Shown piece after piece: positions 8,793-33,584 of a stretch of DNA of 64,000 bases; within the stretch, counting starts at the first letter, position 1; each line of letters opens with the position of its first letter. Under the pieces are notes generated by a model, which was not told where the DNA came from, searched no databases, and saw only the letters and a program-made list of their open reading frames with translations. Location of the stretch: NCBI GenBank assembly GCA_965261595.1, contig CBDHDG010000006.1:352001-416000 (forward strand), in the 5' to 3' direction. This DNA comes from a bacterium (GTDB lineage: Bacteria; UBA8248; JACPRG01; G963555815). The position numbers and the translations under genes were made by a program.

Positions 8793-8819
8793 CGCATCCG
8801 AAAGCAAGGAGAGATTCGC

Positions 8820-11362: not shown

Positions 11363-11365
11363 CCC

Positions 11366-14604: not shown

Positions 14605-14890
14605 CGGGTTGAATCCTCCGTTCGCGCGCGTATATTGAACTGGACAAAAAGGTTCCGCGCTGATTGCGCGCTTCAGGGAAACCGCGCGTGCGCCGATAAG
14701 CCTTTAAGAGAAAACGGCCGGGAGCCGTTTGTCGATGTCGGGGTTTGAACGTTTTCCAGGCATGTGGTACCGTGAAGATTCACCTGCCAAAACCCGAGCG
14801 GAGGAGGCTCGCGCCTCATCGCGGAGGTCGGCGCCGGGAAGGGGACGGTTTCTCTTTCTTCTGTCGAATGCTACGGGGGAAGTTTAGGAG

Positions 14891-16771: not shown

Positions 16772-17784
16772 GCACGGAAACGGAAAAACTCACCAAAAAG
16801 GATTTCACCTCGGACCAGGTCGTCAGGTGGTGTCCGGGTTGCGGCGACTACGCCATCCTGGCGCAAGTGCAGGCCATTTTCCCGGACTTCGGGATTCCCC
16901 GGGAGAAGGTCGCTTTCGTCTCGGGAATCGGCTGCGCGGCCCGGTTCCCCTACTACATGAACACCTACGGGTTCCACTCCATCCACGGCCGGGCGCCGGC
17001 CTTCGCCACGGGCCTCAAAACGGCCAACCCGGACCTCTCCGTCTGGGTGGTGAGCGGGGACGGGGACGCCCTGTCCATCGGGGGCAATCACCTTCTCCAC
17101 ATTCTTCGCCGCAACGTCGATGTGAAGATCCTCCTGTTCAACAACCGGATATACGGCCTGACCAAGGGGCAGTACTCTCCCACCTCGGAGCTCGGCAAGA
17201 AAACCAAGTCCACGCCGATGGGCTCGGTGGACACGCCGCTCAACCCCGTCTCCGTCGCGCTCGGCGCGGAGGCCACGTTCGTCGCCCGGACGGTGGACCG
17301 GGACGTGAAGCACATGAGAGAGGTCATCCGACAGGCCGCCGCCCACAAGGGAACGGCCTTCGTCGAGATCCTCCAGAACTGCCCCGTCTTCAACGATGGC
17401 GTCTTTTTCAACCTGACCGAGAAGGCCACCAAAGAGACCGACGGCATCCGCCTCGACATCGGACAGCCGGCCGTCTACGGGCCGAAAGACAACCTGATGG
17501 GCCTCCGGTTGAACGGGCTGAAACTCGAGTCCGTCCCGGTCAACGGAGACACCGACGGATTGCTCGTGCACGATCCGCACGCCGCCGACCCCACCCTGGC
17601 GTTTATGATCGGCCAGATGCACAACCACGGCCTCCCGGTCGCCCTGGGCGTCCTCCGCGCCGTGGAAAGACCCTGCTACGACACCCTCGTGAACGACCAG
17701 GTCCAGCAAGCCATTCAGTCCAAGGGGGAAGGCGACCTCGAAGCGCTCCTGAACGACGGAGATTCCTGGACGGTGTCCCCGTAG
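16768..17784 (+). CDS. korB: 2-oxoacid:ferredoxin oxidoreductase beta subunit
   Basis: [26 protein letters not shown]-binding motif, [11 protein letters not shown]. Confidence 0.92.
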
Positions 17785-17893
17785 TCTCCGCGTCCCGAAG
17801 GTCCGTTCGAACCCCGCCGCAAGGGAAATCCGCACCGGGTTTCCCTTGTGTTTTTCCCGATGCCTGGAAGCGATTTGCAGGGAGCCGAGTTTC

Positions 17894-18307
17894 ATGGAAA
17901 ACACGTTCGCCATCATCAAGCCCGACGCCGTGGGCCGCAAGCTGACCGGCCGGATCCTCGACCGGATCGAAGCGGCCGGCTTCCGGATTCGCGCCCTGCG
18001 CCTCCTGCGCCTGACCCGGGCCGAGGCCGAGGGGTTTTACGCCGTCCACCGGGAACGGCCCTTTTTCGCCGGCCTGACCGAGTTCATGTCTTCCGGGCCC
18101 TGCGCGGCGATGGTCCTGGAGAAGGAGGACGCCATCGCGGCCTGGCGCCGTCTCATGGGGGCCACGAACCCGGAGGAGGCCGAGGAGGGCACCCTTCGAA
18201 AGGAATTCGCCGAGAACATCGAGCGCAACTGCGTCCACGGAAGCGATGCCCCCGAGACAGCGGCGTTCGAAACCGCGTACTTCTTCAGGGCCCTGGACAA
18301 GGTGTAA
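17894..18307 (+). CDS. ndk: Nucleoside diphosphate kinase
   Basis: [26 protein letters not shown] 17894. Confidence 0.97.
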
Positions 18308-18506
18308 GGGAAGCCCTGGGGGGAGGGGGGGGGAAGAGTCCGTCCTCAAGCTCCGGGGCGGATGGACCGCCTCGTCGAACCGCCCAAGCGTAAATCGACT
18401 TCCGCGCCCGCCCGGGAGTCTCCATGACTGAAAGTGGATTGGAACGCCGCACAGGGGTTCCACCGGGCGAAATCCAACGGCCGGAATGACTTCCTTCCCG
18501 CCCGCC

Positions 18507-18535
18507 TTGAATCTCAAAACCCTTTGATTTAGAGT
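18507..18535 (+). promoter_or_regulatory. Putative sigma70 promoter of the glycan cluster
   Basis: TTGAAT-17 bp-TAGAGT. Confidence 0.4.
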
Positions 18536-18656
18536 GTCCTCGCAGGCATGAGCGCGGGTCGGCCGGAAGCGGACCGGGCCCGACCGCACGGAGAACGGGC
18601 GGCTCGCCGGGTCCTCCCGGCGATTTCTCATTTCAACCTTTTATCGGGTTTAGCGA

Positions 18657-19340
18657 ATGCGCGCGGTCATTCTGGCGGGCGGGCTGGGAACGAGGCTCCG
18701 GCCTCTCACGTTCTCGATCCCCAAGCCCATCCTCCCCGTGGGGGAAAAGCCGATCCTCGAGATCATCCTCGACCGGCTCAAGGGATTCGGCTTCCATGAA
18801 TTCATCCTCTCCGTCGGATACCGGGCCGAGCTCATCGAAACCTACTTCGGCGACGGCGCGCACTTCGACACGAAAATCCATTACCTGAAAGAAGAAAAGC
18901 CCACGGGCACGGCCGGCGCTCTCCACTTGCTCCACCAGGGCTTCGACATCGCCCGGGACGAGACTTTCCTCCTCATGAACGGCGACGTCCTGACCGAGCT
19001 CGACTTCCACCGCTTCATCGACGCCCACAAGTCCGAAAGGTTCGAGCTCAGCGTGGGCGTCAAGGAGATCGAGCGCCAGCTCCCTTACGGCGTCCTCGAG
19101 GTCGAAGGCCGCCTCGTCCGGCGGATCGTTGAAAAACCCGTCTCGCGGTACCTCATCTCGGCCGGCATCTACCTGCTTCAGGGAAGCGTCCTCCCCCTGG
19201 TCCCGGCCGACACCTACTTCACCCTGCCGGACCTCGTGGAACGCCTGGTGGGGGAGAACCGGCGCGTCGGGAGCCATCTCATCCGGGAATTCTGGCTGGC
19301 CGTGGAGCACCCGGATGACATGGAAGAGGCCCGGTCCTGA
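18657..19340 (+). CDS. Sugar-phosphate nucleotidyltransferase
   Basis: ILAGGLGTRLRPLT...PKP, EEKPTGTAGAL, MNGDVL, EKP. Confidence 0.9.
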   Translation: MRAVILAGGLGTRLRPLTFSIPKPILPVGEKPILEIILDRLKGFGFHEFILSVGYRAELIETYFGDGAHFDTKIHYLKEEKPTGTAGALHLLHQGFDIARDETFLLMNGDVLTELDFHRFIDAHKSERFELSVGVKEIERQLPYGVLEVEGRLVRRIVEKPVSRYLISAGIYLLQGSVLPLVPADTYFTLPDLVERLVGENRRVGSHLIREFWLAVEHPDDMEEARS

Positions 19341-19357
19341 ATCGAGGCGGGCTCGGG

Positions 19358-20056
19358 ATGAGTCTCTCGCTGCGAAAACTTTCCATCATCATTCCCGTTT
19401 ACAACGAGCGAGACACCATCGAGGAGGTCATCCGCCGGGTCCTGGCCGTGGACATCGGCCTTGAGCGCGAGATCATCATCCTGGACGGCGACTCCACCGA
19501 CGGGACCCGGGAGTTCCTGGAGACCCTCCGGGAGGAACAGGTTCGGGTGATCTTCGAAAAGGATCGGGGCGGCAAAGGCGCGGCCGTCCGGCGCGGCTTC
19601 GGCGAGGCCACGGGCGACATCGTCATCATCCAGGACGCCGACCTGGAATTGGATCCGTCCGAATATCCGGACCTTCTGGCCCCCATCCTCCGGGGCGACG
19701 CGAAAGCCGTTTACGGGAGCCGGTTCACCAACGGAAGGGGCGCGACGTCCCTCGGAAGCTACATCGGCAATCTGACCATCACCTGGGCGACCAACCTCCT
19801 CTTCTTCGCCCGGCTCACCGACATCGCGACCGGCTACAAGGTCATCCGCAGGGATGTCCTCGACACCCTGAGCCTTTCGTGCAACGGCTTCGATTTCGAC
19901 GCCGAAATCACCAACAAGCTCCTCAAGGCGGGCGTCCGCATTCACGAGGTCCCCGTCTCCTATGCGCCCCGCGACCACCAGGCCGGAAAGAAGCTTCACT
20001 GGTCCGAAGGTTTGCGGGTTCTGCTGGCGATCCTGAGAAACCGCTTCACCGACTGA
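19358..20056 (+). CDS. GT2 glycosyltransferase (DPM1-like polyprenol-phosphate type)
   Basis: IIIPVYNE, DGDSTDGT, GKGAA, IQDADLE, YGSRF. Confidence 0.92.
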   Translation: MSLSLRKLSIIIPVYNERDTIEEVIRRVLAVDIGLEREIIILDGDSTDGTREFLETLREEQVRVIFEKDRGGKGAAVRRGFGEATGDIVIIQDADLELDPSEYPDLLAPILRGDAKAVYGSRFTNGRGATSLGSYIGNLTITWATNLLFFARLTDIATGYKVIRRDVLDTLSLSCNGFDFDAEITNKLLKAGVRIHEVPVSYAPRDHQAGKKLHWSEGLRVLLAILRNRFTD

Positions 20057-20064
20057 CCGACGCC

Positions 20065-22083
20065 ATGCCCCCCCCCCCCCCTCCTCCCCCCCGGGACAGC
20101 CGATCAGCGCGACTCCGGACGCGGATCTTCACCTCCGTCCTCCGATTCAACGACCGGGTGGATGAATGGATCCGCCGGAACCCGGCCGCGCGCCTCCTGG
20201 GACCCGCCGGACCGTTGCGGCGATGGAGGGAAGGAGAAAGGCGCGGCCCCCGCCCATCGGGGCCGGCGGCCGACAGTGACGGCTGGATCGACGGCAGTCT
20301 CTTCATTACAGCGATCCGGAGGTTTTTGGCGGCGCTGGGCGGTCGAATCGCCGCCCAGGCGCGGGAAGGGATCTTCGGGCGCTGGCGGGACGCCGTGGCC
20401 CGCTCCCGGACGACCGCCCCGCAGCGAACCGCCGCGGCCGTTCTCTTATCGACCATCGGCGCGAACGCGGTTTTCCTTCTTGCCTCCCAAACGCTCCTGG
20501 GAGCGGAAGGCCTGGCGATTCGGGCGCTCCTGCTCACCGGTGCGGGAGCGGCGACGGTCCTGGAAGAGGGCGGGTTCGCCCGCTGGTGGCGGGCTTGGCG
20601 GCCGGTCCAATGGCTCCGGAATTCGGGAAGGAAGAAGGAGGCAACCCCCGGAACCGCCGCTCCGGCCGCTCCGGAGGGGTCTCCCGGCTTCCTCCCCGCG
20701 ATGGCGGCGGGGGTGGTTGCGGGGTTTTTCTGGTGGCTTTCGCCCGGCGCCGCATTTCTGGGACTGGCCGCGGCGGGGTTGGCGGCGGGCCTGAAGCGAT
20801 TCTGCGCCCCGGAGGATTGGGAATTTTTGCGGGGTCTTTTCATCGCTTCCCTGGCCCTTCGCCTGGCCCTCCTGGCCGTTGCGTACGCGTGGGCGATCAC
20901 GCACGTGTGGACCTACTCGAATTCGAATGTCCTGGACTTTCACTTCAGGACCCCGATGGTGTTCGGCGACGGGGGATACTTCACGGCGCGCGCCTGGGCG
21001 CTCAGCCAGATCTGGAGGGGCGCTGAGGTCTGGCCGCGGGCCCTGTATGAAATTCGCCAAACTTACGGGGCCACGTCATTTCTTTACGTCCCCACGGTCT
21101 TCTTCTATCTTTTCGGCCCCGAGGGATTGATCGCGGTCCGGCTCATCAATCCCTTCTTCGGCGCATGCCTCCCTTTGATGGTGTACGGGTTTACCCGCGA
21201 CCTGTTCGGCCGGCCGGCCGGCCGGATCGCCTCGATCACGGTCGCTCTCTTCCCTTCGCTGATCCTCTGGAGCCTGGACCTGCTCAAGGACACCACGTTC
21301 ATCGTGATGACCCTGGCGACCGTCTGGGGGCTGGTTCGATTCCAACGGCGAGAGAGATTCGGCGCCTGGCTTACCGCCGCCGTCATGGCGGCGCTTGCCT
21401 TCACCGTGCGCAATAACCTGGGCATTCTTCTCCTCATCTTGGTCGGACTCGGCTGGATACCCGCCATGTGGCGGCGGTGCGTGGGGCGGAGCCCGGCTCG
21501 GGCGCTGCTCGCCCTTTTGCTTCTGGCGGCGGTTTTCCTCTCCCCCCCCGTGCGCGGTGTGATGGGGGTTCGGCTCTACTGGCTCTTTTCCATCCAGCGG
21601 GGAGCGGCCGAAACGGCCGGAAGGTCCACCTATCCGCTGTGGAGCCGAAGACTCTACCGGCACATGACGCCCGAGACCTTCCTGAAGGATGTCAAACCCT
21701 TGGAAGTCCTCCGCGCGTTCGGACTCGGGCAACGCCATTTCTGGCTCGAACCCACCCCCTGGGGGCCGCGCTCCCGGGGAGAGCGGCTGGCCATCCCCCA
21801 GATGATGCTTTGGTACGTGATCCTCCTGGCGAGCCTCGCCGGGATATGGCGTCTGCGGCGAAACCCCTCGGAGCTCTTCGTCCTGCTTGTGTTCCTCGGG
21901 GCGACGAGCGCAAGCATCGGGATGACGGGAGGGAACGTCGGGACGATTTTCCGCCACCGGGATGTCCTGACGCCGGTCCTGATTGCCGCGGCCGGCGGAG
22001 GACTGGCCGGCTGGCTCCGCCGGACGCGGGACCCGGCCCATCAGGGCGGCCGGGCCGATCGCGGGTCGGCGGGCGAGGCCTGA
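20065..22083 (+). CDS. Polytopic membrane protein, GT-C-like glycosyltransferase/polymerase
   Basis: Many TM segments; FGDGGYF, ALFPSLILWSLDLLKD, NVGTIFRHR; lies between GT genes. Start uncertain. Confidence 0.6.
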   Translation: MPPPPPPPPRDSRSARLRTRIFTSVLRFNDRVDEWIRRNPAARLLGPAGPLRRWREGERRGPRPSGPAADSDGWIDGSLFITAIRRFLAALGGRIAAQAREGIFGRWRDAVARSRTTAPQRTAAAVLLSTIGANAVFLLASQTLLGAEGLAIRALLLTGAGAATVLEEGGFARWWRAWRPVQWLRNSGRKKEATPGTAAPAAPEGSPGFLPAMAAGVVAGFFWWLSPGAAFLGLAAAGLAAGLKRFCAPEDWEFLRGLFIASLALRLALLAVAYAWAITHVWTYSNSNVLDFHFRTPMVFGDGGYFTARAWALSQIWRGAEVWPRALYEIRQTYGATSFLYVPTVFFYLFGPEGLIAVRLINPFFGACLPLMVYGFTRDLFGRPAGRIASITVALFPSLILWSLDLLKDTTFIVMTLATVWGLVRFQRRERFGAWLTAAVMAALAFTVRNNLGILLLILVGLGWIPAMWRRCVGRSPARALLALLLLAAVFLSPPVRGVMGVRLYWLFSIQRGAAETAGRSTYPLWSRRLYRHMTPETFLKDVKPLEVLRAFGLGQRHFWLEPTPWGPRSRGERLAIPQMMLWYVILLASLAGIWRLRRNPSELFVLLVFLGATSASIGMTGGNVGTIFRHRDVLTPVLIAAAGGGLAGWLRRTRDPAHQGGRADRGSAGEA

Positions 22084-22088
22084 GACCC

Positions 22089-23354
22089 GTGGCGAATCAT
22101 CCCCCTCCTCCCCCCCTCCCCCCAACCAACGGCGGGCGGCGGCGTCCACCCAGGATCCTCTTCCTCTCCTACAACGGCGTCCAGGAGCCCCTGACGCAAT
22201 CCCAGGCGCTGCCCTACCTCCGCGGGCTCGCCCGCCGGGGCGCCCGGGTTCATCTGCTCACCTTCGAGAAAGAAACGCCGGGGGGAAACCCGCCGGGCAA
22301 GGACCAGCGCGCGGCTTTGGCCCGCGACGGTTTGCGTTGGACCTGGCTCAGGTACCATAAGCGTCCCGCCTTCGTTTCCACACTCTTCGACGTCGCTCTC
22401 GGGATGGTCATCTCTTTTTGGCTCACCCTGCGGCATCGCGTGGACATCATCGAAGCCCGGGGGACCATCCCCGCGGGAATCGGATTTCCGGTGGCCCGGA
22501 TCCTTCGGCGGCGATTCCTCTTCAACGTCCGGGGGCTGCTCGCCGAGGAAAACGCGGACGCGGGCCGCTGGAGGCTGGATCACCCCGCGGTCCGATGGGT
22601 GAACCGGCTCGAGAAACGATGGATTTCCTCCGCGGACGCGGTCATCGTGCTCACCGAGGCATTGAAACGTCTCCTGGCGGGACCGGATTACCTGCCGCGG
22701 CCAAGGGCCGAAGGGGTGACGGTGATCCCGTGCTGTGCGGACACCGACCGGTTTCTGCCGGCCCGCGAGACGAGAGGGCCGAAGACCGCCTTCCCCACGT
22801 TCGTCTATGCGGGATCGCTCGGCGGGTACTATCTGGTCCGGGAGATGTTCGACTTTTTCGCCGCCGCCCTGGCCCGCTGGCCCCGGGCGCGTCTGCGGAT
22901 CCTGGCCAACGGGTATGAAGACGGGGCGCGCGAAGCCGTGCGCGAGACCGGCCTGGATCCCGGGCGGGTGGAGATCGAGACGGTCGCCCATGAGGATGTC
23001 CCCGGACAGCTGGCCGGCGCCGACGCGGGCCTGATCTTCGCCCGCCCGGCCTTTGCCCGGATCGGCATGTCTCCGACCAAACTGGCCGAGTATCTGGCCT
23101 GCGGTCTGCCGGTCGTCACAACGCCTGGAATCGGGGACACCGAGAGCGTTGTCCAGGAAGACCGGACCGGGGTGGTGGTTCGGGGTCTCGACCGGGCCGG
23201 GTACGAGGGGGTCTGCGAGGCGCTCTCGACGCTTTTCGAGGAAGGCGAGACCCTGCGGACCCGGTGCCGGCAATCGGCGGTTCGTCGATTCGGGTTGGAG
23301 AGAGGGCTTGCGGGATATCGTGAAGTCCTGGGATTTCTCGGGTTCCGACTGTGA
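22089..23354 (+). CDS. GT4 (GT-B) glycosyltransferase
   Basis: QSQALPYL, VIPCCADTDRF, YAGSLG, SPTKLAEYLACGLPVV; GTG 22089. Confidence 0.9.
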   Translation: MANHPPPPPLPPTNGGRRRPPRILFLSYNGVQEPLTQSQALPYLRGLARRGARVHLLTFEKETPGGNPPGKDQRAALARDGLRWTWLRYHKRPAFVSTLFDVALGMVISFWLTLRHRVDIIEARGTIPAGIGFPVARILRRRFLFNVRGLLAEENADAGRWRLDHPAVRWVNRLEKRWISSADAVIVLTEALKRLLAGPDYLPRPRAEGVTVIPCCADTDRFLPARETRGPKTAFPTFVYAGSLGGYYLVREMFDFFAAALARWPRARLRILANGYEDGAREAVRETGLDPGRVEIETVAHEDVPGQLAGADAGLIFARPAFARIGMSPTKLAEYLACGLPVVTTPGIGDTESVVQEDRTGVVVRGLDRAGYEGVCEALSTLFEEGETLRTRCRQSAVRRFGLERGLAGYREVLGFLGFRL

Positions 23355-23540
23355 CTTTCCCAAGGGGGTTGCGTATATAGATTTTTACATCGTTAGACGT
23401 TGGGGTGGTTGGTAAAATACGCGCTGTTCGGAGCGTCGTCCCGAGACCCGGCCGGCCGGGCCGGCGGACCGCCCCCGTCGGGGGATCGAGCAAGTTGAGT
23501 CATCGGGTTTCGCCGGAACCTCCCGGGCGCGAAAATTGGA

Positions 23541-25290
23541 GTGGGGAAAATCGCTGAGACGCCGAAAAGATTCGGCACCCATGTGCTGTACACCGCGATT
23601 TCCATCGGGACGCTCCTGCTGTTCCTGCCGGCGACCCGGGCGTGGTTCATCGGCCGGGGGATGCGGTGGTTTTTCATTTTCCTTCTGTCCCTCTTCCTGA
23701 GCCTGCTCCTGACGCCGGCCGTCCGCCGCTTGGCCCGCCGCCTTGAAGTGCTGGACGCGCCTTCATCCCGAAAGGCCCACGAGAGAAGCACCCCGCTGCT
23801 GGGCGGAATGGCTATTTTTCTCTCCTTCGCCATCGCCGTCATCTACAACCTGTATTTCTCGTTTCAACTCAAGGGCGTCGCCATCGGCGCCACGCTCGTC
23901 ATGGTTTTTGGCCTGGCGGACGACATCTGGGACCTGCCGGCGCTGATGAAGCTCATGATTCAGCTTTGCGCGGTGGGGGTCATGATCGTTTACGGGGTCA
24001 GCGGAAATTTCATGCCGACCTCCTTTCTGGGGGACGGCTTCGAGGTGCCCCTGACGATTATCTGGATGATCGGCATCACCAACGCCGTGAACTTTCTGGA
24101 CGGGATGGACGGTTTGGCGGCGGGGCTGGGCCTCATCGCATCCACGTTCATCGGTCTTGTGGCCCTGCAAACCGGCCAGCGGTTCCTGCTTTTTCTCGCC
24201 GTGGCGTTGGCGGGCAGTTGCCTGGGATTTCCCCCCTACAACTTCCATCCCCGAAAACCCGCGACCATCTTTCTCGGGGACGCGGGCAGCCAGTTCATCG
24301 GATTCACCCTGGCGGGGATGGCCATCATGGGAAATTGGGCGATCGGCGATCCGGTGAAGGCCTACAGCATGCCCATTCTGATCCTGGCCATCCCAATCTT
24401 CGACATGACCTACATCACTTCCACGCGCATTTATTGGGGGCGGATTCGCAGCTTCAGGGAGTGGCTTGAATACACCGGAAGAGACCACCTGCACCACCGC
24501 CTGGAAAACCTCGGCCTCTCCAAGAAGCAAACGGTTCTGTTCATCTACTTCCTGGCAGCCGCGTTGGGCGTCAGCGCGGTCGTCCTGAAAAACGGCCGGA
24601 CATTGGACGCCGTGGTCCTGTTGTTTCAGGCGGCGATGCTGCTGTTGATCACCGCCATGCTGATGGTCCGGGGCGCCCGCCTGGTTCAGGACGCGGGACG
24701 GGAGATCCGCCGAACCCTGACCAACATCCTCGGCTTCAGCGAAGTCATGCTGGGGGAGGAGCCGGAATCGCCGAGCGCCCGTCGGGAGTACGCGGAAATC
24801 ATCCGGCGCAAGAAGATCCGTTTGGAGAGCGAGCTCAACCGCCTTTCGGGCGCCCTCCCGCCGGAAGCCCCCGCCGGGTCGGAAGGGGACGCCGAATCCG
24901 CCGATGCGGAAGCGGAGTCCCGAACGATCCTGGTCGTCGATGACGACCTGGATTTCCGCCGGTTGATCGAGATCATCCTGGGCAAACGTAACCGGATCAT
25001 CACGGCCTCCGACGGCGCCTCAGCCATCTCCTGGGCCCTCGACGCCCGGCCCGATCTGATCCTGATGGACCTCTTCATGCCCCGCCTGGACGGCTTCGAA
25101 ACCGTCCGGATCCTTCAGGAAAACCCCGATACGCGGCAAGATTCCCGTGCTGGCCCTGAGCGCGGAGATGTCTCGGGTCAACGCCGAACGGGCCTTGGAA
25201 GCCGGATGTGTTGGCTATCTGGGGAAACCGTTCGACGCCCGGACCCTTCGCCGCGCGGTGACACGCGCCCTCCGCATCGCCGCCGACTGA
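23541..25290 (+). CDS. WecA/MraY-family polyprenyl-phosphate HexNAc-1-P transferase fused to degenerate HisKA and receiver domains (frameshift near 25138)
   Basis: TPLLGG, GLADD, NAVNFLDGMDGLA, FLGDAGS, DHLHHRL; then REIRRTLTNILGFSEVML and ILVVDDD...ILMDLFMPRLDG; the receiver continues in the +1 frame to TGA 25288-25290 (unshifted ORF ends 25307). Confidence 0.85.
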
Positions 25291-25346
25291 ACCGCGCTCT
25301 TCCTTAAGGGGCTCCCCGCCTCAGGGAAGAAGTCCGCCTCGGGTTC

Positions 25347-26276
25347 TCACCCGGATCCCTCGCCGGGCCGGCCGGCCGCCTGCGGCCTTGCGCACGCCCC
25401 CGGTTTCGCCAGCCGCTCGGCGTTCCGGTAGGCGATCTTCTCGGCCACGGACCGGGGCAGCTCCTTCAGCCAGGCCCGGTGTCCGTCCAGCGTCCGCGGC
25501 AGAAACGCCCACCGGTCGTCCGCCCAAGTGTCCGTCCCCACCAGGAAGCGATCCGGGTGGCGCAGGAACAGCTTGCGCCAATCCGGCTTCAGCCCGTCGT
25601 GAGAGACGTCCCACCGAAGGGCCAGCTCGGCCCAAAGATTCGCGTGGCGGTCCAGGAGCTGTCCGATGGTCTCCGGCCCCGCCGTCATCCCCGCGTGCGC
25701 CCAGAGGACGCAGACGCCGCGCTTCATCGCCGCGATCTCCGCAACGGCCGCCGCGTCCACGTGGGCGTGGAGGAAGAGATTTTCCCGCGCCGCCAGATCG
25801 ACGATCCGTCGGAAGACCGGGGAGGCGGCGTCGCCCGCGCCCATGTGGAACTCCCCAATCCCCCGGTAGACGCCCCGCCCGGTCCGGATGCGTTCTTCGA
25901 GATAGGCCGGGATCTCCGGATCCCGAAACCACGTGGCCATGTCCGCCGGCGTCCTGTAAGGGCGCAGGACGGGGACGACGACATTCGGCGCCGCCCGGTG
26001 GAGCCTGAGCGTGCCGTCGTCCGGCGTGCTGGAGACGAAGGCCCGGATCACGCCGCCCCGCTTCAGGATCTTCAACGCCCCGGCCGGCGGGAGCCGATCC
26101 CAGGCGTCCCGGCCGTAATGGATATGGGCATCGAAGATGGGGAGCCGCTGGGCAGCCGCCGGCCCGGCGGACAAAAAAGGGACAACCGACAGACCGGCCA
26201 GGATCGCGACCCGGCCGGAAACGAGCAAGCCGGACCGCCCGAACCGCATATGGAAGAACGTGGTGATGGGCTTCAT
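25347..26276 (-). CDS. Amidohydrolase-family (TIM-barrel) protein, probably exported
   Basis: IFDAHIHY, GIGEFH, LWAHAG, DRFLVGTD; signal-like N-terminus. Confidence 0.8.
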   Translation of the reverse strand: MKPITTFFHMRFGRSGLLVSGRVAILAGLSVVPFLSAGPAAAQRLPIFDAHIHYGRDAWDRLPPAGALKILKRGGVIRAFVSSTPDDGTLRLHRAAPNVVVPVLRPYRTPADMATWFRDPEIPAYLEERIRTGRGVYRGIGEFHMGAGDAASPVFRRIVDLAARENLFLHAHVDAAAVAEIAAMKRGVCVLWAHAGMTAGPETIGQLLDRHANLWAELALRWDVSHDGLKPDWRKLFLRHPDRFLVGTDTWADDRWAFLPRTLDGHRAWLKELPRSVAEKIAYRNAERLAKPGACARPQAAGRPGEGSG

Positions 26277-26401
26277 GGCCTTCTTCCCCGAGGATATGCG
26301 GATCGATTCGGGGAAAATGGAGAGTTCGGATGGCGAGGCGGGGGCGGCCGGTCGGAGGAACCCGCTGCCGCCGCTTTGGCTTCGGAACCGCCCGCGCGGC
26401 C

Positions 26402-27283
26402 TCAGACGGCTACGTGGATGCTGAGCTTTTCGTAGTCCTTCTCCTTCATCTCATCCCGCAGCCCCCAACTCTCCAGCCATGCGTGGTTCTCTTCAAAGAA
26501 GCCCTCGCCGTACGGCTCGAAAACCATCAACTCGCCCAGACAGAATTTGGAGTAATCATAGTCGCCGCGCATGTCCGCCGGGATGTTCCTTTCCCAAAGG
26601 GGCAGGTAAGGCGCCGGGTCCGCGCGAAGCGCCTCATCGGCCCGCCTGAGAACGCGGAAGTACGCCTTCAGGGTGTCGGGGTCCAGGTCCTCGCTCACCC
26701 AGGAAAGGATCCGGAACTGCCCCATCGCCAGCCGGCGATGGCCCCGCTGGAGGGCCATGTCGATCGCCGGGTCCACGAGGTTGATCACCTCGATCTCCCC
26801 CGACTCCAGGTATTGAAGCCGCTGAACCGGCCCGCCCAGGTTGTTGATGATGATCTTCTCTCGCGAATGGATCATCTCCATCGCCTTCAAAGTCGTGTAG
26901 TGGGTCCCCGCGCGGATTCCGACGCCGATGGGGACGTTCGCCAGGTCCAGAAGGGAGTGGTAGGGCGAATCCGGCCGGACGAAGAAGGAATAGTTGGCCA
27001 CGCCGTAGAGGTCGGGGACGATCTTCCCCATGCCCGCGCCGGCGTTGCTCGCCGCGCCCCAGTGGCAGGCCGCGTGGACGCTCGACACCCCATCCACAAA
27101 AGGGCGGTCCTGCGGCCGCTCGTAGTACGCATCGCCCTGGTGGCTGAGCAACCCGTGCGTCACGCCGTCCAGGTGCTCAGGCGCGAGGCCCTCATCTTGG
27201 TAATAGCCGTTTTCGAGCGCAATCCACTCGTGGAGCCTCATGAAATGCGGCACCACCTTGACGGGCTTCAGATGTTGCGTCAT
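26402..27283 (-). CDS. NMT1/SsuA-like substrate-binding-fold protein
   Basis: WIALENGYYQDEGL, FVRPDSPYHSLLDLANVPIGV; ATG 27283; no evident signal peptide. Confidence 0.7.
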   Translation of the reverse strand: MTQHLKPVKVVPHFMRLHEWIALENGYYQDEGLAPEHLDGVTHGLLSHQGDAYYERPQDRPFVDGVSSVHAACHWGAASNAGAGMGKIVPDLYGVANYSFFVRPDSPYHSLLDLANVPIGVGIRAGTHYTTLKAMEMIHSREKIIINNLGGPVQRLQYLESGEIEVINLVDPAIDMALQRGHRRLAMGQFRILSWVSEDLDPDTLKAYFRVLRRADEALRADPAPYLPLWERNIPADMRGDYDYSKFCLGELMVFEPYGEGFFEENHAWLESWGLRDEMKEKDYEKLSIHVAV

Positions 27284-27451
27284 CTCTTCATTCCCCCCTT
27301 GGCTTTTCGGGCGGCGGAACCCATTCCCGCATTTTCCGGATATCCCCACCGATGAAGCCACTTTAATACAAAACCCGGTTCGATGCAGGCCGAAACTTCC
27401 TTTCGCCCAAGCGGAGCGCCGCAGCCTCGCCGCGCGCATGTCCGAAAGCCC

Positions 27452-27480
27452 TTGACCCTCGGGCCGATGGGCGGTAGATT
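27452..27480 (+). promoter_or_regulatory. Sigma70 promoter upstream of the TPP riboswitch
   Basis: TTGACC-17 bp-TAGATT about 10 bp before the aptamer. Confidence 0.6.
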
Positions 27481-27490
27481 GGATTCAAGA

Positions 27491-27572
27491 TCGCTAGGGG
27501 TGCCTTGTACTGAGAGTCATACTCTGACAACCCTTAGAACCTGAACTGGGTAATGCCAGCGTAGGGAAGCGG
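27491..27572 (+). ncRNA. TPP riboswitch
   Basis: CTAGGGGTGC...CTGAGAG...ACCCTTAGAACCTGAACTGGGTAATGCCAGCGTAGGGAAG matches the THI-box consensus; upstream of a thiXY-like transporter. Confidence 0.95.
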
Positions 27573-27632
27573 CGGATAGCAGGGACGTTCGTGGGGAGGG
27601 ACCTTATCCCTTCCCCGAGCCATCGCTTGACG

Positions 27633-27669
27633 GGCCGTTTCCCTCTCTTCGAGAGACGGCCTTGTTGTT
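27633..27669 (+). terminator. Probable riboswitch expression-platform hairpin
   Basis: GGCCGT...CTCTC-TTC-GAGAG-ACGGCC followed by TTGTTGTT. Confidence 0.5.
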
Positions 27670-28570
27670 GAGAGCGAAAGAAGGCCCCGCGCTGGCCAAG
27701 CCGGGGGGGGGGGGGGAGGCCGAAGTTTTCCAGCGGCCCGCGCGGGCGCCGGACGTTTCGGAACGCCGTCCCGCGGCCGTCCCGAAACGGACGAACGGCG
27801 CCGGCCGGGCCTCTTCCCGGGCGCGCGACTACGCGACCCCCGCCCTTCTCCTCCTGTTTTTTCTGGTTCTCTGGCAGGCGGCGGTCGCCGTATTCGCCCT
27901 CCCCCACTACATCCTCCCCTCTCCCATCCTGGTCTTTCAGACCCTCGGCCAATCCTGGGAAATCCTCCTGTTTCATGCCGGCCGGACGCTCGTCGAAGTC
28001 CTCGCGGGCTTCGGGGCGGCCCTGGCGGCGGGCTTCGTCCTGGCCGTCGGGATCACCTATTCACGGGCCCTCCGAAGGGCCCTGTATCCCCTGGTGATCG
28101 CCTCGCAGACCATACCGGTCATCGCCATCGCGCCGCTTCTCGTCATCTGGTTCGGCTACGACATGATGCCCAAGGTGGTGATGACGGCCCTCATCGCGTT
28201 CTTCCCGGTGGTGGTCAACACGGTGGACGGCCTCGAGGCCACCGACCCGGACCTGTTGGATCTGATGCGGCTGCTTCAAGCCGACTGGTGGCAGACCTTT
28301 CGGAAGGCGCGCTTTCCGGCGGCGCTTCCGTTCATCTTCTCCGGGCTGAAAATCGCGGCGGCGATCAGCGTCATCGGGGCCGTCATCGGCGAGTGGGTCG
28401 GGGCGGACCGGGGGCTCGGCTTTCTGATGATCCGGGCCAACGCCCAGCTTCGGACGGACCTGATCTTCGCCTCCATCGTAATCCTCTCGGCCATGGGCAT
28501 CCTGCTCTTCCTCGCCGTGTGCGCGCTGGAGCGGATCAGCATGCCCTGGGAAAGAGGAAATGAAGGCTGA
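27662..28570 (+). CDS. ABC transporter permease, ThiX/SsuC-like (start uncertain)
   Basis: ILPSP, SQTIPVIAIAPLL, FPAALPFIFSGLK, VIGEWVG; TPP-regulated. Confidence 0.9.
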   Translation: MLLRAKEGPALAKPGGGGEAEVFQRPARAPDVSERRPAAVPKRTNGAGRASSRARDYATPALLLLFFLVLWQAAVAVFALPHYILPSPILVFQTLGQSWEILLFHAGRTLVEVLAGFGAALAAGFVLAVGITYSRALRRALYPLVIASQTIPVIAIAPLLVIWFGYDMMPKVVMTALIAFFPVVVNTVDGLEATDPDLLDLMRLLQADWWQTFRKARFPAALPFIFSGLKIAAAISVIGAVIGEWVGADRGLGFLMIRANAQLRTDLIFASIVILSAMGILLFLAVCALERISMPWERGNEG

Positions 28571-28628
28571 GCCGGCGGCGGCCTTCGACTTCCCTTCAAC
28601 GTCCTACAACGAAAGAGGAGACTCCGAG

Positions 28629-29621
28629 ATGCGAATGCGACGGCGATCGATCACCTGGACGGTCCTGGCCCTGCTGGGAGCGGTTTTTCTTCTCGCGGGC
28701 TTCGGACCCGGGGCGGTCTCGGCCGAGGAGCGGGTGAACTTTCGGCTGGATTGGACTCCGTGGTCGCTTCACACCTTCCTGTTCGTGGCCGAGGAGAAGG
28801 GGTATTTCAAGCAAGAGAACCTCAAAGTCCGCCTCTACGTTCCCGCCCATCCCGAGGACACCCTGAAGCTGGTCGGCGTCGGGAAAGACCACTTCGGCCT
28901 GAGCTACCAGACCGACACCATCATCGGCCGCTCGGAAGGCCTCCCCGTCGTGTCGGTGGCCGCGGTGGTGCAGCACCCCCTGAACGTCATCCTGACGATG
29001 AAGGACTCCGGGATCACGCACCCCCGGCAGCTCAAGGGCAAGAAGATCGGCTCGCCCATGATCCCGTCCGACGACGCCTTTCTCAAGACCATCGCCCGGG
29101 CGAACGGCATGACGATGAAGGATTTCCGTGTCGTCAACGTCGGGTTCAACCTGGTCCCTCCGCTCCTTCAGGGCAGCGTGGACGCCGTCATCGGGACTTA
29201 TTGGGTGTGGGAGAAGGTCCAAATCGAGCTGGAGGGAAAGGCGGTGAACGTCATCCGCCTCACCGACCACGGCGTCCCCGATTTTTACGAATCGGTCCTG
29301 ATCACCAGCGACGGAATCGTCCGGAAGAACCCGGCCCTCATCCGCCGCTTCCTCCGGGCGTCCGACCGAGGCTGGAAGTTCGTGATGGACCGGCCCGAGG
29401 AGGCCCTCCAAATCCTGTTGAAGAAGAACAAAGACCTCCGCCCCGAGCTGGCCCGCCGGGCCATTCAGCTCCTCATCCCCCTGGTGCGCGACGGCGTCCC
29501 CAAGGTGGGCTGGCAGACGGAGGCCAAGTGGCGCGAGTTGCGGGATTACATGCTGGACAGTAAGCTGATCCGCAAGAGCGTCCCCGTGAAGCCCCTGTTC
29601 ACCACGTCCTTCCTGCCCTAA
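28629..29621 (+). CDS. ABC substrate-binding protein, ThiY/NMT1-like (thiamine precursor)
   Basis: Signal peptide; LDWTP...H, EKGYFKQENL, LSYQ, GVPDFYE; AGGAG RBS before ATG 28629. Confidence 0.9.
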   Translation: MRMRRRSITWTVLALLGAVFLLAGFGPGAVSAEERVNFRLDWTPWSLHTFLFVAEEKGYFKQENLKVRLYVPAHPEDTLKLVGVGKDHFGLSYQTDTIIGRSEGLPVVSVAAVVQHPLNVILTMKDSGITHPRQLKGKKIGSPMIPSDDAFLKTIARANGMTMKDFRVVNVGFNLVPPLLQGSVDAVIGTYWVWEKVQIELEGKAVNVIRLTDHGVPDFYESVLITSDGIVRKNPALIRRFLRASDRGWKFVMDRPEEALQILLKKNKDLRPELARRAIQLLIPLVRDGVPKVGWQTEAKWRELRDYMLDSKLIRKSVPVKPLFTTSFLP

Positions 29622-29658
29622 CACGCGGGGGGGCCGGCAGCGAGACGGGAGGACCGGC

Positions 29659-30822
29659 ATGAGCGCCCCCCCCCCCCCCGAAAATCCGCCCGCTTCCCTG
29701 ACGCCGGGTTCGGCCACGCCGGAGGGCACAGCCGCCTACCGAGACCGGTTCGCCGAGGCGACCGCCGAAGGCCACTACCGGCCGTACCAGGACCTCTGGG
29801 TCTCGACCATCGGAATCGGCACCTATCTGGGAGAGGAGGACGAGCCCACCGACGACCTCTACCGCCGGGCCGTGGCCCAGTGCCTGGACCTGGGCTGCAA
29901 CGTCATCGACACGGCGGCGAACTACCGTTGCCGGCGAAGCGAGCGGTCCGTCGGCGAGGGGCTGCGGGACGCGTTTGGCGGGGGGAAGACCCGCCGGGAG
30001 GAAGTGGTCGTCACGACCAAGGGCGGCTTCATCCCCTTCGACGGCGCGCAGCCGAAGGACCGGGATGAATTCATCGGCTACATCGTCAACACCTTTCTCA
30101 AACCCGGCATCATGCGGAAAGAGGACATCGTGGCCGGCTGCCACTGCATGACCCCCGGCTATCTCCAGCACCAACTGGACGCCAGCCGCGCCAACCTGGG
30201 ACTGGACCGCCTGGACGTCTACTATATCCACAACCCGGAAACGCAGCTTCAGGAGGTCGACCGTCAGGAGTTCCTTTCCCGCGTGCGCGCGGCGTTCGAG
30301 ACCCTGGAGAAAAACGTCGGGGACGGGAAGATCCGTTACTACGGAACCGCCACCTGGTCGGGGTGCCGCCTCAAGCCCGAGGAGCGGGAATACCTCTCTC
30401 TGGCCGAACTCGTGGGGGCCGCGAAGGACGTGGCCGGAGAGGACCACCACTTCCGGGCCATCCAGCTTCCGCTCAACCTGGCGATGCCCGAGGCCATCGC
30501 CCTGGCCAACCAGCCGGTGGACGGCGAGATGACCTCGCTCGTCAACGCCGCGGGCCACTTCGGCATCTCCCTGATGGCCAGCGCGTCCATCTTCCAGGGC
30601 CGGGTGGCGGAGAACCTGCCGGATTTCGTCAGCGGGGCGTTTCCCGGGCTGAAAACCGACGCCCAGCGGGCGATCCAGTTCGTTCGCTCGACCCCCGGGA
30701 TGACGGTGGCCCTGGTGGGGATGCGTCAAACCGCCCACGTGGATGAAAACATGGCGATCTCGGGGGTTCCGCCGGCGACCATCGAGGACTACGAGAAGGT
30801 GTTCAAGCCGGCGGAAGGCTGA
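29659..30822 (+). CDS. Aldo/keto reductase family protein
   Basis: IGIGTYLG, IDTAANY, TKGG, YYIHNPE, ALVGMRQTAHVDEN. Confidence 0.9.
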   Translation: MSAPPPPENPPASLTPGSATPEGTAAYRDRFAEATAEGHYRPYQDLWVSTIGIGTYLGEEDEPTDDLYRRAVAQCLDLGCNVIDTAANYRCRRSERSVGEGLRDAFGGGKTRREEVVVTTKGGFIPFDGAQPKDRDEFIGYIVNTFLKPGIMRKEDIVAGCHCMTPGYLQHQLDASRANLGLDRLDVYYIHNPETQLQEVDRQEFLSRVRAAFETLEKNVGDGKIRYYGTATWSGCRLKPEEREYLSLAELVGAAKDVAGEDHHFRAIQLPLNLAMPEAIALANQPVDGEMTSLVNAAGHFGISLMASASIFQGRVAENLPDFVSGAFPGLKTDAQRAIQFVRSTPGMTVALVGMRQTAHVDENMAISGVPPATIEDYEKVFKPAEG

Positions 30823-31184
30823 CCTCTTCGGCTGAGATCGCGCAGGACGCGGAGGGGGGGGGGGCTTTTTCGTTTCGGGCGGCGTGGGGTGTCCGACTTT
30901 ACCTCGGATTTCCCATTCGGGTCATAGGATTCGGCGGGCCGAAGGCTGTTTTCCAGCGTAAAATCAAGCGGTTACCCTCTTGCCCGCCTTTTCGCGGGGG
31001 GACCCTATGGGTGAAGCGAAAGGTGGGCTTTGAAGGTCCGTTCCGACCATGGCGGCCGGCGATCAGCGCCCGGATTATGGCTTCGAGGGGCTCTTGACAG
31101 GGCCATTGGAGGGGGAGCCTAATGATTTCAAACCGCAAAGACGACCCGAAGAATATCGACCGAAGTTGAAAGGGAAATTCCCAT

Positions 31185-31870
31185 ATGGAACAAGTGCTGC
31201 CAACCGTTTGCCAAGAATGCTGGAACGAATGCGGTGTGCTGGTGCATGTCGAGGACGACAAGATCAAGGAGATCGTCGGCAACCCCGCGCATCCGGTGAC
31301 CAAAGGGTATATCTGCAATAAAGGATCAAGATTCACCGAAGTTGTGTACCACAAAGACCGACTGCTTCATCCCCTCAAACGGGTTGGCGCCCGCGGCGAA
31401 GGAAAATGGCAGCAGATATCGTGGGATGAGGCGTTGGACTACGCCGCCGATGCCATCCAGAAGATCCGGCGGACCCACGGCCCTCAGTCGTTCGCCATGT
31501 TTGATCACCACGTCTTTCGCGACCCCATCTGGACACTGTTCGAGCGCTTCGTCGGCAATAACAATGTGATCGGCTGCCTGGATCGATGCGACGGTTCGGC
31601 GGGCAAGGAATCGACAACGGCGACTGGTGCTGGATCCTCACGCCGAGAGGAAAGGTGAAGATGGTCGCCACCCTCACCGACCGGATGCATCCAAAGGTGG
31701 TGAGTGCACAGCATGGCTGGTGGTTTCCAGAGAAAAACACGACAAATCATGGCGTGAACGAATCAAACATTAACCTCCTAACCGACAGAGAAACGGAGCA
31801 TGCCGATCCAGTCATCGGGGGTCATACCTTCAAAGGCCTTCTCTGCACCATTGAGAAGATCGCGGATTGA
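31185..31870 (+). pseudogene. Molybdopterin oxidoreductase remnant (N-terminal Fe4S4 region joined out of frame to the C-terminal dinucleotide-binding region)
   Basis: CQECWNEC...ICNKG, DRLLHPLKRVGARGEGKWQQISWDEALD; then in another frame GIDNGDW...TPRG...QHGWWFPE...NINLLT; the central several hundred residues are absent. Confidence 0.85.
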
Positions 31871-32048
31871 GGTGGCGCGCGATCCCATCAAGCGGCAAGT
31901 GCAACCGTAGGAATTCAGCCGAAGAGATTTGAAATTCCGGTCTGGGCGCGGTTGGGGAAAACGGTGCGTGCGGTGAAGGCCCGCGTACACCGGAGTCCCT
32001 TGCCGACAGGGACCCGATGACGCGGAAAATAGACAGGTGAATGCGGAC

Positions 32049-33584
32049 ATGAGCGAAACGCGCGACATCGACTTATCCAAGGGCGGCGTTCACGATTACC
32101 ACCGCACCGTCCGGTGGCTGGAATCTCTGATCGACCTCCCCATTTACGACCACCGGGACTTTCCGGCGGAGAAGGGGCAGCCGTTCGTCCTGGGGCTTCG
32201 GCGGTTCGTCGAGTTCCTGGACGCCCTGGGCATCTCCATCGAGGACGGCAACGGGCCCGAGATCACCCACGTGGCGGGGACGAGCGGGAAGGGGTCCGTC
32301 TCGGCCTTCCTGGCCGCCATCCTCTTCGAGGAGGAGAAGACCCGGTCCCGGCCGCGCGGCGTCGGGTCCTTTTTCTCCCCCCATGTCTCCTCCCTCACCG
32401 AGCGCACCTGGTCGGACGGGAAGCTCATCGACCCGGCCGGCCTCGACCGGATCGTCGAGCGCATGAAACCCCACATCCAGCGCGCCTATCTCGAAGGGAA
32501 GTACGGCATCCCCTCCTTCTTCGAGATCACCCTGGCCCTCGCCCTCCTTCACTTCCGCGCCCGGGCGGCCGGGCGGGTCATCCTGGAAGTCGGCCTCGGC
32601 GGAACGTACGACGCCACCAACGTCTTCGCGAAGACCGCGCTTTCCATCATCACGAAGATCGGCCTCGACCACACCGACATCCTCGGAAGCACCATCGGGC
32701 AGATCGCTGCCGAGAAGGCCGGGATCGTCAAGCCGGGCGGCCTGGTTCTCTCCGGCGTCCAGACGCCTCGCGCCCAAAAGGTCATCCGGGAAGTCTGCGC
32801 GGAGCGCAAGGCCCAACTCATCTCGCTCAACGACACGCCCCTGGGCGCGGCCGCCGGCCTGCGGGAAACCCGGCCGGACGGAAGCGTCTTCGACTTTCTC
32901 CCCGGCCCGGTGACCAGCCTGACCTCCATCCGGAACCTCGAAATCCGCATGCCGGGGATCCACCAGGTCCAGAATGCGTGCCTGGCCGCCGCCGCCGCCC
33001 AGCTTCACGGCGTGGGCGAGGAGGCCATCCGCCGGGGTCTCGCGAAGACCCGCCTCCCCGCCCGGGTCGAGGTCGTCGGCGACGCCCCGACCGTCGTGCT
33101 GGACGGCGCCCACAACACCGACAAGGCGCGCGCGCTCCGCAACGCCCTCGACCTGACGCCCGCCTCCGGACGGCTCTTTGTCCTGGGCGTCCTGGGAGAC
33201 AAGGACGTGGACGGCCTCTGCGAAGTCCTCCTGCCGGGAAGCGCGGGCGTGTTCGTGACCCGTCCGTCGAGACCGCCGCGGCCCGCCTGCGACCCGAAGC
33301 GTCTCGCGGAGGCGGCCTCCCGCTTCTCGCCGGTCCGGGGCGTCTTCCTGGACCCCTTCGATGCCGTGGAAGCCGCCCTGAACGCGGCGAAAGAGAACGA
33401 CTTGGTCTGCGTAACGGGGTCCCTCTTTCTGGCCGGCGAGGTCCGCGAGCGCTGGCGGCCCCTGAGAGACATCCTGCGGGAAGGAACGTCTTTTCCGGAT
33501 ACGTCCGAGGCCGGCGAGATCAAAGCGTCCGGAACCCCTTCGAACGTCGCCTCCGGTTCACGGGGCGGCGGCGCAAGGCGATAA
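32049..33584 (+). CDS. folC: Folylpolyglutamate/dihydrofolate synthase
   Basis: HVAGTSGKGS, SPH, LEVGLGGTYDATN, IGLDHTDILG, EKAGI, LDGAHN, TGSLFLAGE. Start 32049 or 32037. Confidence 0.92.
   Translation: MSETRDIDLSKGGVHDYHRTVRWLESLIDLPIYDHRDFPAEKGQPFVLGLRRFVEFLDALGISIEDGNGPEITHVAGTSGKGSVSAFLAAILFEEEKTRSRPRGVGSFFSPHVSSLTERTWSDGKLIDPAGLDRIVERMKPHIQRAYLEGKYGIPSFFEITLALALLHFRARAAGRVILEVGLGGTYDATNVFAKTALSIITKIGLDHTDILGSTIGQIAAEKAGIVKPGGLVLSGVQTPRAQKVIREVCAERKAQLISLNDTPLGAAAGLRETRPDGSVFDFLPGPVTSLTSIRNLEIRMPGIHQVQNACLAAAAAQLHGVGEEAIRRGLAKTRLPARVEVVGDAPTVVLDGAHNTDKARALRNALDLTPASGRLFVLGVLGDKDVDGLCEVLLPGSAGVFVTRPSRPPRPACDPKRLAEAASRFSPVRGVFLDPFDAVEAALNAAKENDLVCVTGSLFLAGEVRERWRPLRDILREGTSFPDTSEAGEIKASGTPSNVASGSRGGGARR

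Follow-up and report, generated by a model that had tools for sequence, protein, structure and literature searches.

In the WecA/MraY superfamily of polytopic phosphoglycosyl transferases, a DDxxD-type motif serves as the Mg2+ site, a role has been described for an HHH motif, and MraY forms a dimer (as presented in PMC4790310). How cells divide a scarce carrier, polyprenyl phosphate, among competing glycan pathways is still to be explained, and priming is where such control would most naturally act. In Myxococcus xanthus, EpsW~P acts post-translationally to activate EpsZ, a priming transferase, probably through promotion of the active dimer (PMC12802240), and the discussion of that paper also cites small monotopic transferases with fused receivers (O'Toole et al. 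2021). Among signaling proteins, DivL of Caulobacter, in which Tyr takes the place of the acceptor His, acts neither as a kinase nor as a phosphatase. It binds DivK~P specifically, and the substitutions R553A (+3) and T557N (+7) in DivL abolish this binding (by the account in PMC4211667). Here, we describe a gene that joins elements of these systems in one polypeptide. It lies in a 64,000-nucleotide stretch of bacterial DNA (contig CBDHDG010000006.1 of assembly GCA_965261595.1; hereafter, the window), where an open reading frame (ORF) at 23541..25307 on the plus strand encodes a protein of 588 amino acids. The protein combines a WecA/MraY-type transferase, a stalk that resembles the dimerization and histidine phosphotransfer (DHp) domain of histidine kinases but has no acceptor His, and a receiver whose second half lies in another frame. 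We judge the chances to be about even that the gene encodes a priming glycosyltransferase gated by its receiver, with the stalk reading the receiver's phosphorylation state.

The N-terminal part of the protein matched Pfam Glycos_transf_4 (PF00953) over residues 112–264 (E 9.2e-36, 123.7 bits against a cut-off of 27), and the catalytic motifs of the superfamily could be located along it (Table 1). Across the aligned transferase sequences, D128 was conserved in 13 out of 13 and D127 in 12 out of 13. The full set of D127/D128, N181, D187, D190, D247, and H316/H318/H319 was kept in all 10 fused sequences tabulated. In Foldseek searches, the model of P0001, a homolog 74% identical to the window protein, resembled MraY (TMt 0.74–0.81; for structure 8cxr, E 3.5e-10 and TMt 0.77) and human DPAGT1 (TMt 0.63–0.66). 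Motifs and predicted fold together mark residues 1–376 as a predicted polytopic phosphoglycosyl transferase of WecA/MraY type in which no catalytic motif is disrupted. The score against the NCBIfam model TIGR02380 (ECA_wecA) was 135.2 bits, below the equivalog cut-off of 326.05. By this measure, the enzyme is WecA-like and is not a member of WecA proper (UDP-GlcNAc:undecaprenyl-P GlcNAc-1-P transferase).

Past the last membrane helix, the transferase continues in frame into the stalk. A first reading of this DNA, made from its letters without database searches (the sequence-only reading), had described an intact transferase running into a HisKA-like stretch with Arg at the phospho-His position and no HATPase domain, and both Pfam and hhalign bear this out. 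Pfam HisKA (PF00512) matched residues 380–430 of the window protein with E 0.003 (18.0 bits against a cut-off of 26.9). Two relatives scored higher, P0001 with 20.8 bits and P0004 with 30.0 bits, the latter above the cut-off. All 10 family members compared had a HisKA match at E ≤ 0.01, the strongest with E 2.7e-7. When the family profile was aligned with the canonical kinase encoded elsewhere in the window (40007–41617), hhalign placed R387 on the His of SHELRTPL (probability 51%, E 1.6e-4). The acceptor position was occupied by His in none of the 13 family sequences. Five had Arg (the window protein, P0116, P0001, P0121, and P0003), one had Lys (P0002), and seven had Tyr (P0004–P0009 and P0086). 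We found no HATPase_c match in the window ORF with Pfam or NCBIfam, and the domain was absent from 9 of 10 members, P0086 being the only exception.

Within the stalk, large hydrophobic residues were fully conserved at positions 389, 393, 396, 399, and 403 and at 417, 420/421, 428, 432, and 435, an a/d heptad pattern. The Arg at +3 from the acceptor position, G398, and F399 were invariant in the family alignment, as was the Thr at +7, save for a Ser in P0086. Together, these comparisons show the hairpin to be a putative homolog of the DHp (HisKA) domain of histidine kinases, with Arg, Lys, or Tyr in place of His.

The linker that follows was described in the sequence-only reading as acidic, which its composition confirms (seven acidic and no basic residues at 438–459). 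AlphaFold2 models were made for members of two subfamilies, P0001 (pLDDT 88.1, pTM 0.76) and P0004 (pLDDT 84.6, pTM 0.72; pLDDT and pTM are the confidence scores of the program), and in both, the linker equivalent had pLDDT below 50 (residues 431–450 and 435–456, respectively). In each model, the last membrane span and the first stalk helix form one continuous helix of 51 residues (347–397 in P0001 and 349–399 in P0004). The second stalk helix (404–429 and 408–433), the linker, and a canonical receiver come after it. In a structure search, the receiver of the P0001 model matched RpaA, PleD, RR468, and DivK.

The receiver of the window protein was found in two pieces. In frame 0, Pfam Response_reg (PF00072) matched residues 463–530, corresponding to profile positions 1–69 of 111 (E 9.3e-12), and the +1 frame supplies positions 71–110, so the break falls at profile position 70. 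The placement of the second half in the +1 frame after about 25138, as first proposed, is therefore correct. The description of the receiver as complete, with its DDD and LMD motifs, is correct only if the frameshift is bridged; in the assembly as it stands, the receiver in frame 0 is cut after about 70 residues and followed by an out-of-frame tail of 56 amino acids. Across both pieces, all five active-site residues of a receiver (DD, D, S/T, and K) are present. The same DD, D, S or T, and K are kept in all aligned family receivers, and the receivers of intact relatives scored 72.6–82.2 bits against Response_reg.

Close relatives allowed us to define the break precisely. Frame 0 ends with ENPDTR (25136), and the +1 piece opens with KIPVLALSA (25138). 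In P0116, which is 98% identical, the same residues are consecutive (191 and 192) and read DTR-KIPVLALSA without interruption. P0233 (92% identical, with 46/50 identities downstream) also reads DTRKIPV unbroken and has the same C-terminus as the +1 piece. Because both of these sequences read through, we attribute the break to one extra base in the window copy, although its identity is ambiguous among the local G/C bases. The frame is likewise uninterrupted throughout in P0001, P0002, and P0004–P0009. Programmed frameshifting was considered and rejected, as the relatives have no shift and the sequence has no slippery or stop-codon context.

A real frameshift in this organism would cut the receiver after about 70 residues and leave either a transferase locked in an unregulated state or an incipient pseudogene, a reading to which we give somewhat less than an even chance. 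The break lies in ACGCGGCAAG, outside any long homopolymer, which is atypical for an indel error of short reads; P0116, for all its 98% identity, has a different lesion at its 3' end (a read-through after RRAVT); and a gene remnant at 31185–31870 indicates that decay occurs in this genome. The downstream sequence argues the other way. The +1 frame is as conserved after the break (41/42 identities with P0116) as frame 0 is before it (187/191, residues 342–532), and P0116 and P0233 read straight through. GC content at third codon positions (GC3) was 0.85 in the receiver before the break and, after it, 0.76 in the +1 frame compared with 0.53 in the frame-0 tail. The coding signal thus follows the +1 frame with no decay, and any mutation would be very recent. 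As the source of the extra base, we give about equal odds to an error of assembly and to a genuine mutation of very recent date. A real frameshift would be compatible with gating by the receiver in the family, the two not being mutually exclusive; it would mean that the enzyme of this strain is without its switch.

The 3' end of P0116 itself departs from the window in another way. After RRAVT (from residue 233 on), its reading frame runs on, over some 370 residues, through sequence antisense to the window's downstream gene. The last eight codons and the stop, present both in P0233 and in the +1 frame of the window, are missing from it, which amounts to a second, different 3' lesion.

The fusion is shared with other proteins. 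Both Glycos_transf_4 and Response_reg were present in 8 of the best 120 of 5541 matches (P0001, P0002, and P0004–P0009; 557–596 amino acids, 46–74% identity), and all eight have uninterrupted receivers. The question raised with the first reading, whether relatives have the fusion at all, is answered by these proteins. The remainder of the best 120 were P0086, P0116 (N-truncated and near-identical), and 110 transferase-only proteins of about 320–416 amino acids. In the alignment, unfused relatives end directly past the last membrane helix, whereas fused ones run on into the stalk without an indel. The junction in the window protein lies inside one open frame and has no indel relative to the fused homologs, in agreement with the earlier statement that the junction itself is not at a frameshift. 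The C-terminal module is 66–67% identical within the close subfamily, which also includes the fragments P0121 (204 amino acids, 55% identical) and P0233, and 32–35% identical across subfamilies. Against a family profile, six fused proteins scored 921–1041 bits, compared with 644 bits for the best unfused protein. The source bacteria of the members, which are Nitrospinota-type and relatives, are all uncultured.

These comparisons bear on whether the gene arose when a transferase gene and a two-component gene were joined by accident or as a chimera, and is now decaying and without function as a unit. The frameshift of the window copy would fit such a join, as would the rarity of the family. However, the eight fused relatives, the most distant at 46% identity, and P0086 all have the same indel-free junction, six of the fused proteins score as one family against the profile, and two independent models have a continuous helix over the junction. 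The C-terminal module has also been retained at 32–67% identity. Assembly chimeras are unlikely, as the fused relatives occur in separate assemblies from four source collections. By these comparisons, the fusion is a conserved protein family and neither a chimeric join nor an accidental, decaying fusion, and we regard an accidental join as very improbable.

The family is rare. A degenerate DNA pattern that combined the DHLHHRL loop, a fixed gap of 204 nt, and the RxxLTxIxGF motif matched the window once (0 expected) and, in the genomes of 185,579 species, matched one locus, L001, on a contig of a Nitrospinota metagenome-assembled genome that encodes P0004; the genome from which the window comes gave no match in this collection. 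This is a lower-bound statement on the family's occurrence, because the pattern is bound to the spacing of one subfamily and misses other transferase–receiver architectures. Protein searches, each with its own blind spots, brought no additional fused clusters. The family-profile search yielded no new fused member among the 8000 candidates that it scored, and P0007, P0008, and P0086 fell outside these candidates, so the count of fused proteins is also a lower bound. A word-indexed search with residues 335–450 of P0001 returned only four close proteins. A phmmer search with residues 340–532 gave 132,012 matches at E ≤ 0.001, of which the best 150 were dominated by multi-receiver proteins through their summed scores; family members among these 150 were only P0121, P0008, and the fragment P0233, and we take no census from them.

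A tree of the transferase domain (41 sequences) placed the fused proteins in three positions: the close subfamily (P0001 and P0002), the Tyr subfamily as sister to an unfused clade (98/92), and P0086 on a long branch. A single fused clade was rejected (approximately unbiased test, p 0.0074). One gain followed by loss of the tail and transfer of the module are both possible, and both fit the identical junction. P0086 (606 amino acids, Fidelibacterota by its source name) is built differently from the other members. Its transferase and His-less stalk, with Tyr at the acceptor position, are followed by HATPase_c and no receiver, which makes it a fusion of a transferase with a pseudokinase.

Taken together, the domain order suggests how a transferase gated by its own receiver may work. 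The C-terminal helix of MraY lies at the dimer interface. In the fusion protein, the stalk hairpin would pair with that of a second subunit to form a four-helix bundle, holding the two transferase domains side by side. D510 of the receiver would take its phosphoryl group from a kinase whose gene lies elsewhere or from a small phosphodonor, and the phosphorylated receiver would then dock on, or leave, the His-less bundle. The Arg, Lys, or Tyr at the old His site may act as a ligand of the phosphoryl group rather than as its acceptor, and the bundle, with Arg+3 and Thr+7 as docking residues, would read that group as the pseudokinase DivL does. The resulting movement, in helix register or dimer geometry, could travel along the continuous helix to the membrane domain near the His-rich nucleotide-sugar loop, where transfer of sugar-1-phosphate to the polyprenyl phosphate carrier would be switched on or off. 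In the window, the enzyme may prime a glycan built by the four genes upstream. We consider the mechanism reasonable because there are two precedents, DivL and EpsW~P/EpsZ. The further suggestion of the sequence-only reading, that phosphorylation could gate the first committed step, is plausible. A more specific version, in which a transmitter stalk stripped of its His and ATPase has been reused in reverse as a reader of phospho-aspartate that drives a WecA/MraY-type membrane core allosterically, and two-component signaling would thereby reach the first lipid-linked step in glycan assembly directly, is one we put forward tentatively and consider less likely than not to hold in full.

The direction of signaling could also be the opposite. 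The transferase domain might anchor the protein in the membrane or sense the supply of carrier lipid or nucleotide-sugar, while the stalk and receiver pass a signal outward, for example by engaging a partner kinase or regulator or as a sink for phosphate. P0086 is suggestive of such a signaling protein, because the same transferase and His-less stalk lead there into HATPase_c (E 8.4e-23), a kinase-like layout. Further, the C-terminal 204 residues of P0001 resembled clusters of free-standing HisKA and Response_reg proteins in the ESM Atlas (score 0.97, 223/256 shared features; a lead only), and at L001, a separate single-domain receiver gene is convergent with the fusion gene. However, a stalk without His, in receiver-bearing forms also without an ATPase, could neither generate nor relay a phosphoryl group, and the catalytic residues kept in 10 out of 10 fused members would not be needed in an anchor. 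The L001 receiver is only 32–34% identical to the free and fused receivers of the window, and no conserved partner is evident. Overall, we find outward signaling improbable, though clearly less so than an accidental join.

Several observations weigh against gating of the transferase by its receiver. The window protein's own HisKA match falls under the Pfam cut-off, and a PDB sequence search with the stalk alone was not significant; its best alignment, with KinB (3d36, E 0.47), also places the Arg on the His. The residues of phosphatase type vary within the family (E/K/R/Q at +1 and R/S/K at +4), and because of this variation, a catalytic (phosphatase) role of the stalk is unsupported. The models are of monomers only and cannot show a four-helix bundle or dimerization. 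The TIGR02380 score is below the WecA cut-off and does not assign a sugar to the enzyme. No histidine kinase or histidine phosphotransfer (Hpt) gene was found beside the fusion gene, either in the window or at L001, and the gene context is not conserved, with glycosyltransferase genes absent upstream at L001. On the transferase-domain tree, the fused proteins do not form a single clade, so the history of the module includes loss or transfer. The window copy is frameshifted, with its receiver broken in the assembly, and this frameshift together with the separate 3' lesion of P0116 could mean that the switch is dispensable in this lineage.

Table 1. Features of the fusion gene and of the glycan genes upstream of it, in window coordinates
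Feature	Position	Strand	Basis
Sugar-1-phosphate nucleotidyltransferase	18657-19340	+	Pfam/NCBIfam
Glycosyltransferase family 2 (GT2), AglJ/ArnC-like (polyprenyl-phosphate-sugar synthase type)	19358-20056	+	Pfam/NCBIfam
PMT_2/GT-C membrane transferase	ends 22083, start uncertain	+	Pfam/NCBIfam
GT-B transferase	ends 23354, start uncertain	+	Pfam/NCBIfam
Predicted polytopic phosphoglycosyl transferase domain (WecA/MraY superfamily), residues 1-376, up to last membrane helix	23541..24668	+	Pfam, NCBIfam, fold of homolog P0001, ends of unfused relatives
ADDIWD motif (D127, D128), DDxxD-type Mg2+ site of the superfamily	23916..23933	+	Motif location
NAVNFLDGMDGLA motif (N181, D187, D190), NxxNxxDGxDGL type	24081..24119	+	Invariant in 13 tabulated transferase sequences
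FLGDAGS motif (D247, third Asp)	24270..24290	+	Asp invariant
DHLHHRL His-rich cytoplasmic loop (H316, H318, H319), 'HHH' nucleotide-sugar loop of the superfamily	24483..24503	+	Motif location
Putative His-less DHp-like (HisKA-like) helical hairpin, residues 377-437	24669..24851	+	Sub-cut-off Pfam HisKA, hhalign, heptads, models
R387 at the phospho-His position	24699-24701	+	hhalign
Acidic, probably disordered linker, residues 438-459	24852..24917	+	Composition, pLDDT of models
Receiver, first half, residues 460-532	24918..25136	+	Pfam Response_reg, P0116 identity
Receiver acidic pocket D467-D469	24939-24947	+	Frame 0
Receiver phospho-acceptor D510	25068-25070	+	Frame 0
Extra base within ...ACG CGG C AAG..., shifting the frame +1	25137..25137	+	Comparison with P0116 and P0233
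Receiver, second half including stop, +1 frame	25138..25290	+	Pfam Response_reg profile positions 71-110, E 4.4e-6
Receiver Ser	25159-25161	+	+1 frame
Receiver Lys	25225-25227	+	+1 frame

In the window, four glycan genes (18657..23354, plus strand; Table 1) form a same-strand row that ends with the fusion gene. A terminator-like hairpin was found ahead of this row (18604–18623), and none was found between 23354 and 23541. The sequence-only reading had assigned the enzyme to the glycan made by this upstream cluster, which fits the row in the window but finds no counterpart at L001, where such genes are absent. There, the fusion gene (9041–10843) is preceded by genes for alanine dehydrogenase and a phosphorylase and followed by a convergent single-domain receiver and Lnt. 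The nearest kinase/regulator pair in the window is 15 kb away (40007–42303), and a free receiver is encoded at 45354–45722. Judged from L001, the one comparison locus, the glycan cluster is not kept beside the fusion gene, nor is any partner kinase.

We made several further observations on these neighborhoods. The single-domain receiver gene at L001 (10761–11189, minus strand) overlaps the 3' end of the fusion gene by about 83 nt. We considered it as a conserved free receiver partner and rejected this, since it is 32% identical to the window's free receiver and 34% identical to the fused receiver, a generic similarity. Within the glycan row, the longest ORFs for the GT-C gene (19879–22083) and the GT-B gene (21468–23354) begin with long N-terminal stretches rich in Pro and Arg, which reach back over the genes before them. 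Translation probably starts well inside these ORFs, the extensions being an artifact of ORF calling in high-GC DNA. Upstream of the glycan row is a row of tricarboxylic acid (TCA) cycle genes (5144–18307, plus strand) encoding isocitrate dehydrogenase, malate dehydrogenase, a two-subunit class I fumarase, flavoprotein and iron-sulfur subunits of succinate dehydrogenase/fumarate reductase, succinyl-CoA synthetase, a two-subunit 2-oxoacid:ferredoxin oxidoreductase, and ndk. This set is compatible with a reductive or reversible cycle. Further upstream, 1862–3481 (plus strand) encodes a type IV restriction-like enzyme of 539 amino acids, with GmrSD_N and a C-terminal HNH nuclease.

The remnant at 31185–31870 (plus strand) derives from a molybdopterin oxidoreductase gene. 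One ORF (31185–31658) combines the Fe4S4 domain with just the opening 44 profile positions of the Molybdopterin domain, a second (31586–31870) has the end of the Molydop_binding domain, and most of the Molybdopterin domain between the two pieces is missing. It lies in the lowest-GC part of the profiled region 17000–33000, with a GC content of 0.56 at 31000–31999 compared with 0.64 for the whole window.

If its receiver does control the transferase, this family would be the first in the polytopic transferase superfamily, home also to MraY and eukaryotic DPAGT1, with such control. The first demonstrated activation of a priming transferase by a receiver protein, that of EpsZ by EpsW, dates only from 2025 and concerns an unrelated monotopic superfamily. 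Having a receiver, a coupling element, and a polytopic enzyme in one polypeptide would make a self-contained system in which to follow the passage of a cytoplasmic phosphorylation signal into an MraY-like membrane core. The stalk would also be a second, independent His-less DHp domain apparently reused as a reader, and not a writer, of phosphorylation. There are practical limits, as the sources are uncultured, the family is rare, and the window copy is frameshifted.

Compared with known members of the WecA/MraY/DPAGT1 superfamily (PF00953), residues 1–376 have the domain, the catalytic motifs, the predicted fold, the 11-helix-type topology, and the cytoplasmic C-terminus in common. The difference lies beyond the membrane domain, where known members end past the last membrane helix and none has been described with a DHp-like stalk or a receiver. 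The sequence-only reading knew of no characterized phosphoglycosyl transferase with this architecture, and in the literature, judged mostly from titles and abstracts, we likewise found no fusion of a polytopic transferase with a receiver.

Two systems resemble the fusion protein in placing a receiver at the priming step. As in EpsW/EpsZ, a phosphorylated receiver would control a priming transferase at the first step of a pathway, but this is a likeness of function alone. The EpsW/EpsZ system consists of two proteins, and EpsZ, a large monotopic transferase, has an unrelated fold. In the fusion protein, a His-less stalk connects the receiver to a polytopic enzyme. EpsW was the best NCBIfam match of the window's second receiver piece, at a score far below the cut-off (E 7.5e-6). 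The monotopic fusions, by the passage that cites them, have priming transferase and receiver in one polypeptide and were found by bioinformatics; they belong to a different superfamily from the polytopic enzyme and are said there to act as monomers.

The stalk has its closest functional parallel in DivL. Both have a HisKA-type DHp domain in which the His is replaced (by Tyr in DivL, as in 7 of the 13 sequences here) and Arg+3 and Thr+7 are kept, and in both, as we propose for the fusion protein, information would pass from a receiver into a kinase-like module. DivL differs in keeping its ATPase (CA) domain and PAS sensors, in binding a separate receiver, DivK, and in having another kinase as its output. 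The fusion protein may therefore work like DivL but is not a DivL-type member, as the CA domain is absent. With hybrid histidine kinases, the fusion protein shares the order of membrane domain, DHp, flexible linker, and receiver, as well as a membrane helix that runs straight into DHp helix 1; it differs in having no acceptor His and no ATPase and in having an enzyme, not a sensor, as its membrane part. The Atlas proteins that resemble the C-terminal module (about 206–215 amino acids, without an ATPase, commonest in Verrucomicrobiota) are soluble and unfused, a likeness that comes from shared features and not from an alignment, and they may represent a mobile two-domain cassette. Overall, control of a priming transferase by a receiver has a known precedent in trans, EpsW~P acting on EpsZ (as reported in PMC12802240), and what is new here is the polytopic enzyme superfamily, its fusion to a receiver, and the His-less stalk between them.

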